DNA from: Halomicronema hongdechloris C2206 | GTDB lineage: Bacteria; Cyanobacteriota; Cyanobacteriia; Phormidesmidales; Phormidesmidaceae | Length of the DNA stretch: 32,000 nucleotides | Direction of reading: 5' to 3' | Assembly: GCF_002075285.3 (NCBI RefSeq) | Contig: NZ_CP021983.2 | Span: 3,750,001 to 3,782,000 of the forward strand | Position numbers and translations under genes: made by a program | Notes under the pieces: model-generated | Database searches by the model: none | What the model saw: only the letters and a program-made list of their open reading frames with translations | Told to the model about the DNA's origin: nothing | Shown here: positions 24,996 through 26,369 of the stretch, one piece after another | How the letters are laid out: every line of letters begins with the position of its first letter | How positions within the stretch are numbered: position 1 is the stretch's first letter

Positions 24996-26369
24996 TCAAT
25001 GTTCTTGTGGTGGCCGGGTGGCTCGCAAAATCAGCCAGCTAGAAATCGCTAACCAGATTGCGGCAATCAGGCAGGCTTTGCTGATAACAGAGCGAATATA
25101 GCCTTGGATATCCTCGACATAAGCGGCGTTATACTCCAGCTCCATGGCCCCGACCATCTCGCCAGCCGCATTTTCGATCGGACCATAGATGGCAATCCAG
25201 GTGCCGGTCTCATCGACATAGGGATCGAAATTTAAGCTAATCTCCTGGAGACCATCCAACATCTGCCAATCCGGGGACTTGAGTTCGCGGAAGTTGTAGG
25301 CATAGCTCGGGTCGAGACTGCCCAGTACATCACCCTCGCGGGCGATATCACCAATGATCAAGACCTCATCGGCATTGGCACCCGGGATGTAGGTAACCGG
25401 TAAGGCCGAGGGGGCGATCCGATTGATAGTTTGCAGCCAGGCCTGATGACGTTGATACAGGGGATTATCACTAGGATTGTCTTGATCTGGGGGTAGCTCT
25501 AGCGCTGCCAGGGCGGCAAACTCATCACCATCAATGCCAGTGATGGCCCCCGTCAGGGTGTCGCGCATGGTCTCCTCGGCTTGGTCCATAGCGATGTCGG
25601 TGACGCAGGTGTAGAGCCAATACAGCCCACCACTGACAAAGGCCAGGTTGGCTAATACCGTGGTCAGGACCACCACCCACTTGGCCTGCTGTCGGGCTTT
25701 CAGCCGGGCGGCCTTGGCCTCTAAGCTGGCGTTGATGTAGGACACCTGACCCTCGGTGGGTCTAGGCTCTTTATTGAGTCCCTGGGTCAGCCACTGTTGG
25801 GCCTCGATCAGGTCGGTCCCCCTGAGTAAATAGCTGCGATCGCATCCTTTGGTCTGCCACTCATGCGATCGCACCAGCAGGCGCGTATGGGCATGGACAT
25901 AGTCCAAATCCGTATCCAGGGCGGTCAGTAGCTCTTGAAACGCGGCTTTGAAATCATCTGTTTCGCGGAAAAAGAGCCAGTTATGGCGAGAGATCGAGGG
26001 ATGCAGCCGCGACATCTCAAAGCCTTCCCGCCGCACCAATGGCAAGAACCGCTTATGACACTGGGTGGCGTACTCCACTTCGTCACGACAGACCTCAGAG
26101 GCCACTGAATCAGGGCTGAGGATGAAGACGAAAGTATCGGCCTGTTCGATGCCCCGCTGAATCGATTGCCACCAGTCTTCCCCCTTGCGGATGTCGTCCC
26201 AGTCGATCCAGGGATCGCGGCTAGCCTGGCGAAAGGCCACCTCTAAGGTTTCCACAAAGGCCTTATCTTTGCGGGAATAGGAAATAAAGACATCATTGCT
26301 CCTGATGAATGCTGTAGACACATGCGATCGGGAGCGATTATCAGAGGAATGAGGCATGGGCTCTATCAT
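24996..26369 (-). CDS. TIR-domain membrane protein: N-terminal TIR, helical linker, TM, Cache/PDC-like extracytoplasmic domain, TM
   Basis: The TIR motifs are DVFISYSRKD, WIDWDDIRKGEDW and FVFILSPDSVASEVCRDEVEYA (candidate catalytic Glu). The linker YVHAHTRLLVRSHEW....DRSYLLRG.DL..AQQWL is common in cyanobacterial TIR proteins. TM1 is WVVVLTTVLANLAFVSGGLYWLY. A domain of about 175 aa ends TGTWIAIYGPIENAAGEMVGAMELEYNAAY, which is Cache-like. TM2 is ACLIAAIWLAISSWLIL, followed by a 9-aa tail. Confidence 0.8.
   Translation of the reverse strand: MIEPMPHSSDNRSRSHVSTAFIRSNDVFISYSRKDKAFVETLEVAFRQASRDPWIDWDDIRKGEDWWQSIQRGIEQADTFVFILSPDSVASEVCRDEVEYATQCHKRFLPLVRREGFEMSRLHPSISRHNWLFFRETDDFKAAFQELLTALDTDLDYVHAHTRLLVRSHEWQTKGCDRSYLLRGTDLIEAQQWLTQGLNKEPRPTEGQVSYINASLEAKAARLKARQQAKWVVVLTTVLANLAFVSGGLYWLYTCVTDIAMDQAEETMRDTLTGAITGIDGDEFAALAALELPPDQDNPSDNPLYQRHQAWLQTINRIAPSALPVTYIPGANADEVLIIGDIAREGDVLGSLDPSYAYNFRELKSPDWQMLDGLQEISLNFDPYVDETGTWIAIYGPIENAAGEMVGAMELEYNAAYVEDIQGYIRSVISKACLIAAIWLAISSWLILRATRPPQEH

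Follow-up and report, generated by a model that had tools for sequence, protein, structure and literature searches.

Architecture of the TIR-Cache protein

A 32,000-nucleotide (nt) stretch of contig NZ_CP021983.2 (positions 3,750,001 to 3,782,000) from Halomicronema hongdechloris C2206, hereafter the window, carries on its minus strand an open reading frame (ORF) of 457 codons plus stop (24996..26369; confirmed in the ORF listing), which is predicted to encode a membrane protein combining a TIR domain with a Cache-type sensor (TIR-Cache protein). The product is 100% identical to a protein of 453 amino acids (aa) from the same strain at NCBI. The alignment of homologues shows a near-invariant methionine, Met5, which is encoded at nt 26357 and lies four codons into the ORF; since the NCBI model of 453 aa begins at the same codon, translation probably starts there.

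From the N- to the C-terminus, the protein consists of a TIR domain predicted to be cytoplasmic (residues 27-148; 25926..26291, on the minus strand like all other parts; Pfam TIR_2 and Foldseek), with Glu97 (26079..26081) as the candidate catalytic glutamate in the motif CRDEVEYA (alignments with homologues and TIR structures); a three-helix connector of about 75 aa (residues ∼151-230; 25680..25919; AlphaFold2 [AF2] model and family alignment); a first transmembrane (TM) helix (TM1; about residues 231-253; 25611..25679; hydropathy, alignment, and AF2), with a mid-membrane Asn241 in the motif T-V-L-A-N-L; a single-Cache (PDC-like, sCache_3-like) sensor domain predicted to be extracytoplasmic (about residues 254-428; 25086..25610; AF2, Foldseek, and homology); a second TM helix (TM2; about residues 429-448; 25026..25085; hydropathy and the AF2 helix 416-451); and a short, presumably cytoplasmic tail (RATRPPQEH, residues 449-457; 24999..25025; hydropathy and sequence). 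The TM segments were delineated with Kyte-Doolittle windows, which yielded two hydrophobic stretches (∼231-253 and 429-448). Hydropathy thus agreed with the first-pass annotation of the window, which had placed a domain of ∼175 aa between two TM helices and left nine residues after TM2. Both peptides quoted there are present, SEVCRDEVEYA as residues 91-101 and WIAIYGPIENAAGEMVGAMELEY as residues 391-413. Its statement that the inter-TM domain is the only globular part besides the TIR domain had to be given up, as a conserved three-helix connector precedes TM1.

No output domain follows TM2; in the window protein only the nine residues of the tail remain, and across the family the C-terminal tails comprise 6-29 aa, are rich in lysine and arginine, and have the consensus ILRATRP. 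At NCBI the identical protein is called “histidine kinase,” a misnomer that stems from the sensor being homologous to those of HAMP-containing histidine kinases. It is hardly conceivable that the protein functions as a sensor histidine kinase or has decayed from one: neither HisKA, HisKA_3, HATPase_c, nor HAMP was matched at E ≤ 1, no more than nine residues follow TM2, and a remnant is at odds with an architecture that is intact in ∼100 homologues. The public label is hereby corrected. The label of a close homologue from Leptolyngbya sp. NIES-3755 (P0085), “RHS Repeat family protein,” appears to be wrong as well.

The TIR domain retains the predicted catalytic glutamate

The Pfam profile TIR_2 (PF13676) matched residues 27-148 with 98.3 bits (cut-off 28; E = 5.5e-28) over profile positions 1-122 of 122. 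The N-terminal TIR domain proposed initially is thereby substantiated, and its cytoplasmic location is predicted from the absence of a signal peptide and from positive-inside flanks. Glu97 is kept in 41 of 41 aligned homologues. It falls into the column occupied by the conserved glutamate of Cat1 (DELEQA), of the SPARTA TIR-APAZ protein (8qlo_A; KEIAVA), of 3h16 (KELDG), and of 7uxr (YELNG); this column in the αC region is that of the catalytic glutamate of TIR enzymes cleaving nicotinamide adenine dinucleotide (NAD+; NADases). Glu97, which had been put forward as a candidate catalytic residue, is therefore both invariant and placed where solved TIR structures have theirs. When the TIR part of the AF2 model was compared with known structures using Foldseek, the nearest was SPARTA TIR-APAZ (root mean square deviation 2.2 Å over 137 columns, 26% identity), followed by SARM1, Cat1, and AbTir. 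Within the family, conservation is highest in the TIR domain (mean pairwise identity 67%, compared with 56% for the connector and 36% for the sensor). Thus, the TIR domain retains the catalytic glutamate, is structurally closest to TIR NADases, and is, by prediction, of the NADase type.

Affiliation with a known TIR-containing immune system was not apparent. The Thoeris profile ThsB_TIR scored 20.8 bits, which is under its cut-off of 21.2, and no ThsA-like gene (SIR2/SLOG or Macro) was present in the window or at seven homologue loci. Regarding effectors of CBASS, Pycsar, or type III CRISPR systems, PADLOC and Pfam matches were confined to the TIR part; no SAVED, CARF, CAP12, or STING-type nucleotide sensor was matched in the TIR-Cache protein, and no cyclase or CARF genes were found among its neighbors in a Pfam scan of the window ORFs. 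A STAND NTPase domain is also absent from the protein, as judged from Pfam.

The inter-TM domain is a predicted Cache-type sensor

AF2 modeled the sensor segment with a predicted local distance difference test score (pLDDT) of 92.9 and a predicted template modeling score (pTM) of 0.88. The model starts with a long N-terminal helix and two short ones, continues with strands 71-78 and 85-90, a further short strand, and a short helix, and ends with three long strands and a C-terminal helix. When the PDB was searched with this model (Foldseek), 33 structures matched at E ≤ 1e-3, and nearly all were sensor domains of the Cache/PDC/PAS type from chemoreceptors or kinases. The top match was the formate sCache sensor 8py0 (3.5e-5); others included Tlp3, TlpA/TlpC, WalK/YycG (target-normalized template modeling score up to 0.70, for 7dud), KinD, and a PAS domain of CitA, and the extracytoplasmic domains of DctB and CitA came in just above E = 1e-3. 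The dominance of Cache-type folds among the matches supports the Cache/PDC-like nature that had initially been assigned to the domain.

At the sequence level, the affiliation is more distant. The segment modeled above (residues 252-432) was taken from 28 homologues. Among these members, matches to Pfam Cache models stayed below threshold (Cache_3-Cache_2 in 12, sCache_3_3 in 5, and dCache_1 in 5; best, Cache_3-Cache_2 with 1.5e-4), and a profile search of the PDB returned CitA, weakly, at E = 0.1-0.2. Three relatives with tandem copies of the sensor (P0185, P0198, and P0262) do pass the cut-off of sCache_3_3 (e.g., 35.9 bits vs 28.8). When 1.84 billion representative proteins were searched with the sensor profile, 2,254 relatives were found at E ≤ 1e-3, 332 of them at E ≤ 1e-10. 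Approximately 113 of the 146 top relatives are built from a short N-terminus, a TM helix, the sensor, another TM helix, and no fewer than 60 aa of C-terminal sequence. Of 91 relatives scanned with Pfam, 54 contained HAMP; other outputs were HisKA/HATPase_c, HisKA_3, GGDEF, EAL, GAF, and PAS. Two hydrophobic helices bracket the sensor in ∼20 relatives that were examined, the exceptions being one of signal-peptide type and one fragment. The classical relatives share the core residues Y305, W311, L312, P320, F360, Y384, D386, G389, W391, P397, G403, and V406. H308/Q309, D341, and R344 are further conserved positions of the sensor. Because the relatives are bracketed by TM helices and feed HAMP, HisKA/HATPase, GGDEF, and GAF outputs, homology shows the predicted sensor to be a working extracytoplasmic signaling module and not a mere anchor.

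This bears on an explanation in which the Cache-like domain would only anchor, localize (e.g., to the septa between the cells of a filament), or oligomerize the protein, and the TIR domain would respond to a cytoplasmic trigger such as a phage protein or metabolite that targets the TIR-connector part. The sensor is, after all, the least conserved part of the protein, the window sensor fails the Pfam Cache models, and the TIR-connector-TM arrangement is also paired with unrelated C-terminal domains (see below), which suggests that a membrane anchor is the constant requirement. However, the sensor has kept the core residues listed above, which it shares with a family whose outputs are overwhelmingly HAMP and kinase modules, the sensor and both TM helices are retained in ∼100 homologues, and a plain anchor needs neither a folded domain of 175 aa, nor a second TM helix, nor a co-evolved asparagine in TM1. 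We therefore consider it rather unlikely that the domain serves anchoring only.

TM1 as the putative transmitting helix

Mean numbers of lysine plus arginine residues in 41 homologues were 4.8 for the cytoplasmic flank of TM1, 2.1 for its far flank, and 2.9 for the C-terminal tail, a positive-inside pattern with the N-terminus inside. In the relatives with HAMP directly after TM2, HAMP is cytoplasmic and the sensor must consequently lie outside, which by homology applies here, too. The sensor domain of the TIR-Cache protein is thus predicted to be extracytoplasmic; the placement of residues ∼255-430 beyond the membrane, as originally envisaged, is supported by both lines of evidence.

In the full-length AF2 model (pLDDT 90.2), a single unbroken helix (206-277) comprises the juxtamembrane region, TM1, and the first sensor helix, and helix 416-451 continues from the C-terminal sensor helix as TM2. 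Two residues of TM1, T237 and N241, are near-invariant in the homologue alignment. An asparagine within TM1 is present in 95 of 100 TIR-linked proteins versus 8 of 123 non-TIR relatives of the sensor, at least one of these eight clearly being a fragment of a TIR-family protein. Asparagine in the middle of the membrane promotes the association of TM helices. The pattern fits TM1 as the transmitting helix, and the signal would, we infer, be transmitted by contacts between TM1 and TM1′ of a dimer or oligomer. With nothing of substance behind TM2, the first-pass annotation had reasoned that any signal would have to return through TM1, for which the continuous helix and the asparagine specific to the TIR lineage provide support.

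The connector and its occurrence in other proteins

The connector (residues ∼151-230) consists, in the full-length model, of two complete helices (155-173 and 184-197) and the first part of a third (206-277). It has the motif HTRLLVR..EW......S.LLRG.DL..A..WL....P.PT., of which H161, T162, R163, L165, W171, L181, L182, G184, and T205 are invariant, and matches neither a Pfam family nor a sequence in the PDB. The connector was always found together with this type of TIR domain, tandem TIR-connector arrays included; the sole other link was a weak resemblance to the stretch that joins nSTAND1 to the TM helix in P0194 and P0165. A scan of genome contigs with the common TIR-connector motif, which is not a species census of the full-length family, yielded at least 542 confirmed loci with the TIR-connector(-TM) cassette in species-representative genomes of Cyanobacteria, Chloroflexota, Verrucomicrobiota, and others. 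Elsewhere, TIR-connector-TM is joined to DUF4101, to a coiled coil plus CHAT, to WD40, or to domains without assignment after a single TM helix (P0103, P0107, P0112, P0113, P0117, P0118, and P0120; loci L009-L081). If the TIR domain is inside, these C-terminal domains would sit outside the membrane.

The breadth of this cassette, which heads CHAT, WD40, DUF4101, and triple-TIR architectures and occurs at these ≥542 loci, is also what would be expected if the TIR domain were a scaffold or adaptor. An activated receptor would then nucleate hetero-oligomers with TIR-connector proteins of the same genome (TIR-WD40, TIR-CHAT, or TIR-NTPase), similar to Toll-like receptors (TLRs) and MyD88, and the effectors would reside elsewhere. 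Other TIR or NACHT genes near some homologues, and Foldseek scores to TLR1, MyD88, and TRR-2 that are close to those of the NADases, point in the same direction. Purely adaptor TIR domains are generally under no constraint to keep the catalytic glutamate, whereas it is invariant here (41/41), and the gene neighborhood holds no conserved partner; a role as adaptor is, in our estimate, quite unlikely.

N-terminal outputs recur on the sensor cassette

The TIR-Cache protein is not the only one to carry its output in front of this sensor. Approximately 17 of the 146 top sensor relatives combine an extensive cytoplasmic N-terminal portion with a short tail behind their final TM helix. The TIR-connector proteins of the present family are among them. 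Preceding the sensor cassette are three tandem TIR-connector units in P0149, TIR-nSTAND1 in P0165, and nSTAND1 alone in P0186, P0194, and P0220. Further proteins of this arrangement were assigned a winged helix-turn-helix domain (wHTH; TrmB/MarR) that precedes TM-sensor-TM cassettes in tandem, three or four per protein (P0170, P0185, P0198, P0262, and P0264). As N-terminal outputs recur on the sensor cassette, signaling back through TM1 seems, as far as can be judged from such architectures, to have evolved several times. The earlier view that a TIR domain gated from the periplasm would represent a logic of its own needs to be qualified in that the output-first order is shared by nSTAND1, TIR-nSTAND1, wHTH, and caspase-CHASE2 proteins.

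The tandem arrays are conspicuous in their own right. P0170, P0185, P0198, P0231, P0262, and P0264 comprise ∼1000-1250 aa with three or four TM-sCache-TM cassettes in tandem; the N-terminal winged helix (TrmB/MarR) was detected in four of them (P0185, P0198, P0262, and P0264), and P0231 gave no wHTH match. Such wHTH proteins resemble one-component regulators that are tethered to the membrane and equipped with several outside sensors.

Distribution and genomic context

The architecture of TIR, TM helix, sensor, and TM helix, for which a search in other genomes had been suggested, was found in ∼100 full-length homologues; 96 of the 120 top homologue matches share the TIR-connector-sensor order. 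Wherever the host was named, full-length homologues came from filamentous cyanobacteria. The family is 45-66% identical across many genera, chromosomal, and present in one copy per locus examined; no copy was found in phages and no full-length copy on plasmids.

The 3′ end of the TIR-Cache gene lies 32 nt from the end of a convergent gene for a pyrC-like amidohydrolase (23827-24963). On the other side, 667 nt upstream and on the same strand, an eCIS_core/DUF4157 gene is located (27037-28989[-]), the product of which comprises 650 aa (eCIS_core/DUF4157 match, E = 8.9e-27) and contains the HExxH-type motif LLAHELAHAV. It was considered as a partner and rejected, as it is absent from all seven homologue loci. 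A multi-gene system in the manner of Thoeris, CBASS, or Pycsar was dismissed likewise, since no neighbor is conserved among the seven homologue loci and the window. A Pfam scan of the window ORFs also revealed nothing resembling a ThsA, a cyclase, or another receptor for a TIR-derived signal. With neither a conserved neighbor, nor such a receptor in the window, nor a phage or full-length plasmid copy, the TIR-Cache gene is predicted from its genomic context to work alone. The neighborhoods of P0128 and P0149 contained nothing informative regarding a ligand, the Rfam scan of the window gave no match, and promoter and terminator sites predicted around the gene did not exceed the level of shuffled sequence.

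Several homologue neighborhoods are rich in toxin-antitoxin genes or contain NACHT or other TIR genes; housekeeping neighbors (pyrC-like gene, SecA, and UvrC) are frequent, too. Because the family is widely conserved, lacks phage and full-length plasmid copies, and is inconsistently located in defense islands, its distribution is as compatible with housekeeping signaling as with immunity. A Cache-gated TIR domain could accordingly act in environmental or developmental signaling, a nutrient or intercellular signal eliciting an ADP-ribose (ADPR)-derived messenger or a local adjustment of NAD+, and have no part in immunity or suicide. Besides the conserved, single-copy, chromosomal occurrence and the housekeeping neighbors, this would be in line with the relatives of the sensor being ordinary two-component sensors. 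To our knowledge, however, the bacterial TIR enzymes characterized so far all act in conflict systems. Furthermore, no gene for a messenger receptor is conserved nearby (window and seven homologue loci), the sensor cassette is also fused to the conflict-type modules nSTAND1 and TIR-nSTAND1, and several neighborhoods are rich in toxin-antitoxin genes, for which reasons we give a purely signaling role little credence.

In two unrelated genomes, a FecR and CHASE2-sensor gene pair lies less than 3 kb from the TIR-Cache gene (Alkalinema sp. FACHB-956, locus L001, 9539-12454; Leptolyngbya sp. NIES-3755, locus L004, 7587-10665). Pairs of this kind are common in cyanobacteria, and the proximity may be coincidental.

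A model for signal transduction by the TIR-Cache protein

The reading we favor, with a probability of roughly one half, is that the TIR-Cache protein is a stand-alone receptor of the inner membrane, the Cache domain of which would gate assembly of the TIR domains and cleavage of NAD+. A periplasmic small molecule, or a cue derived from the envelope, would bind to the Cache domain and shift TM1 relative to TM2; piston or scissor movements are known for PDC sensors such as CitA and DcuS. As nothing follows TM2, the movement would have to exit through TM1, which forms one helix with the juxtamembrane segment and the beginning of the sensor; within a dimer or oligomer, the conserved asparagine would probably zip the TM1 helices together. 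The connector would relay the change, upon which the TIR domains could reorient, self-associate into a composite active site (which TIR enzymes require), and cleave NAD+. Because no partner gene is conserved, direct depletion of NAD+ would be the likeliest outcome, leading to growth arrest or death of the filament cell, and a role in conflict or programmed cell death would fit; a diffusible ADPR-derived signal would be a less likely alternative.

Several observations weigh against this model. The non-enzymatic TIR domains of TLR1, MyD88, and Hydra TRR-2 score just below the NADases in the Foldseek comparison. Four positions before Glu97, where TIR NADases often have tryptophan (as Cat1 does), the window protein has Val93. 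Its own sensor did not match any Pfam Cache model, even at E ≤ 10. The family is conserved in many filamentous cyanobacteria, lacks phage and full-length plasmid copies, and is not consistently found in defense islands. The AF2 model, finally, is that of a monomer and as such uninformative on switching.

A more far-reaching version, possible yet on balance doubtful, would see in the TIR-Cache protein a receptor-type TIR enzyme and bacterial counterpart of TLRs, in which a ligand of the periplasmic Cache domain is converted into destruction of NAD+ via TM1 and the connector, with neither an NTPase nor a second protein being involved. Conceivable cues would be a product of phage adsorption, a product of cell-wall damage, or a signal from a neighboring cell. 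The protein would then also be the founding example of a much larger, as yet unstudied class of membrane proteins of the type TIR-connector-TM-X in Cyanobacteria, Chloroflexota, and Verrucomicrobiota.

Comparison with known systems

The sensor resembles the Cache/PDC sensors of CitA, DcuS, DctB, WalK, and Tlp3 in its fold and in its topology (TM helix, long helix, PAS-like sheet, helix, and TM helix). Unlike in Cache-containing kinases and chemoreceptors, the output is N-terminal to TM1 instead of C-terminal to TM2, HAMP is lacking, and the sensor stays below the Pfam Cache cut-offs. With the TIR NADases (SPARTA TIR-APAZ, ThsB, Cat1, AbTir, TIR-SAVED, TIR-STING, and SARM1), the protein shares the TIR fold, the conserved glutamate, and probably also activation by induced self-association. 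The bacterial TIR enzymes known to us are soluble and respond to triggers within the cell (nucleic acid-guided Argonaute, cyclic nucleotides, or phage proteins); in contrast to those of immunity, the TIR-Cache protein is predicted to be integral to the membrane and to carry its sensor outside, and it has no partner gene.

Toll-like and IL-1 receptors, too, have a sensing ectodomain, a membrane span, and a cytoplasmic TIR domain, the assembly of which constitutes the signal, as is proposed here. They differ from the TIR-Cache protein, in which the TIR domain is N-terminal and probably enzymatic, two TM helices are present, and a Cache domain takes the place of leucine-rich repeats or immunoglobulin domains; the likeness is one of analogy, without shared ancestry of the receptor as a whole. 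The nSTAND1 and TIR-nSTAND1 proteins mentioned above (P0165, P0186, P0194, and P0220) have in common with it the sensor family, the short C-terminal tail, and a similar motif in the juxtamembrane helix; it differs from them in lacking the STAND NTPase switch and in coupling the TIR domain to the membrane via the 75-aa connector.

The closest precedent for the order of parts comes from multicellular bacteria, in which conflict proteins of the effector-first kind have extracellular sensors at their C-terminus; examples are EACC2-caspase or CHAT proteins that end in TM helices and CHASE2 (Kaur, Burroughs, Iyer and Aravind, eLife 2021, PMC8195603). Like caspase-CHASE2, the TIR-Cache protein has an N-terminal cytoplasmic effector of the death type and a C-terminal small-molecule sensor presented outside via TM helices, is enriched in filamentous cyanobacteria, consists of a single polypeptide, and lacks a kinase-type output. 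Unlike caspase-CHASE2, its effector is a TIR domain, its sensor is a single Cache domain held between two TM helices, and it has a dedicated connector and the asparagine in TM1. For STAND systems, too, N-terminal TIR or peptidase effectors with C-terminal sensors that may be periplasmic have been discussed (bioRxiv 10.1101/2023.09.22.558884, PMC10907252). The components and the effector-first principle are thus already known; no description of the TIR-Cache combination was found in a limited literature search (TIR with Cache, periplasmic, or membrane), and the pairing, conserved as it is, is apparently unstudied.

Were the model correct, TIR-based NAD+ signaling would be extended to surveillance of the envelope or the environment, and a prokaryotic parallel to the logic of TLRs and the IL-1 receptor would exist. 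As a single polypeptide of 453 aa, the protein would lend itself as a compact system for studying how TM1 signals to an N-terminal output. The analysis also draws attention to a conserved, as yet unmodeled connector and to a widespread class of membrane-anchored TIR proteins.

Other features of the window

Downstream of the TIR-Cache gene, beyond the pyrC-like gene, an ORF at 23203-23646(-) encodes only the LSGGQ signature and the Walker B part of an ABC ATPase (ABC_tran positions 92-134); as the region is crowded with overlapping ORFs, it is probably a pseudogene remnant. Overlapping genes for DUF433 (22500-22814) and a DUF5615/PIN-like protein (22807-23091) form a toxin-antitoxin-like pair at 22500-23091(+), and a PIN gene (20809-21267[-]) and a DUF29 gene (20239-20760[+]) are close by, which gives this stretch an island-like appearance. 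The 165-aa ORF at 19685-20182(-) covers only the first part of a major facilitator superfamily transporter and is probably truncated. A cluster at 14227-18305(-) comprises genes for an animal-type heme peroxidase (14227-15900), a cytochrome P450 (16195-17607), and a SnoaL-like protein (17754-18305), and could be an oxylipin or secondary-metabolite operon. An IS630-like transposase (1738-2855[-]) is split into a DDE_3 ORF (1738-2274) and a helix-turn-helix (HTH) ORF (2271-2855), and this patch has a G+C content of 0.36 compared with ∼0.55-0.6 in its surroundings. At the opposite end of the window, 30131-31711(+) encodes an HTH plus DUF6399 protein of 526 aa.

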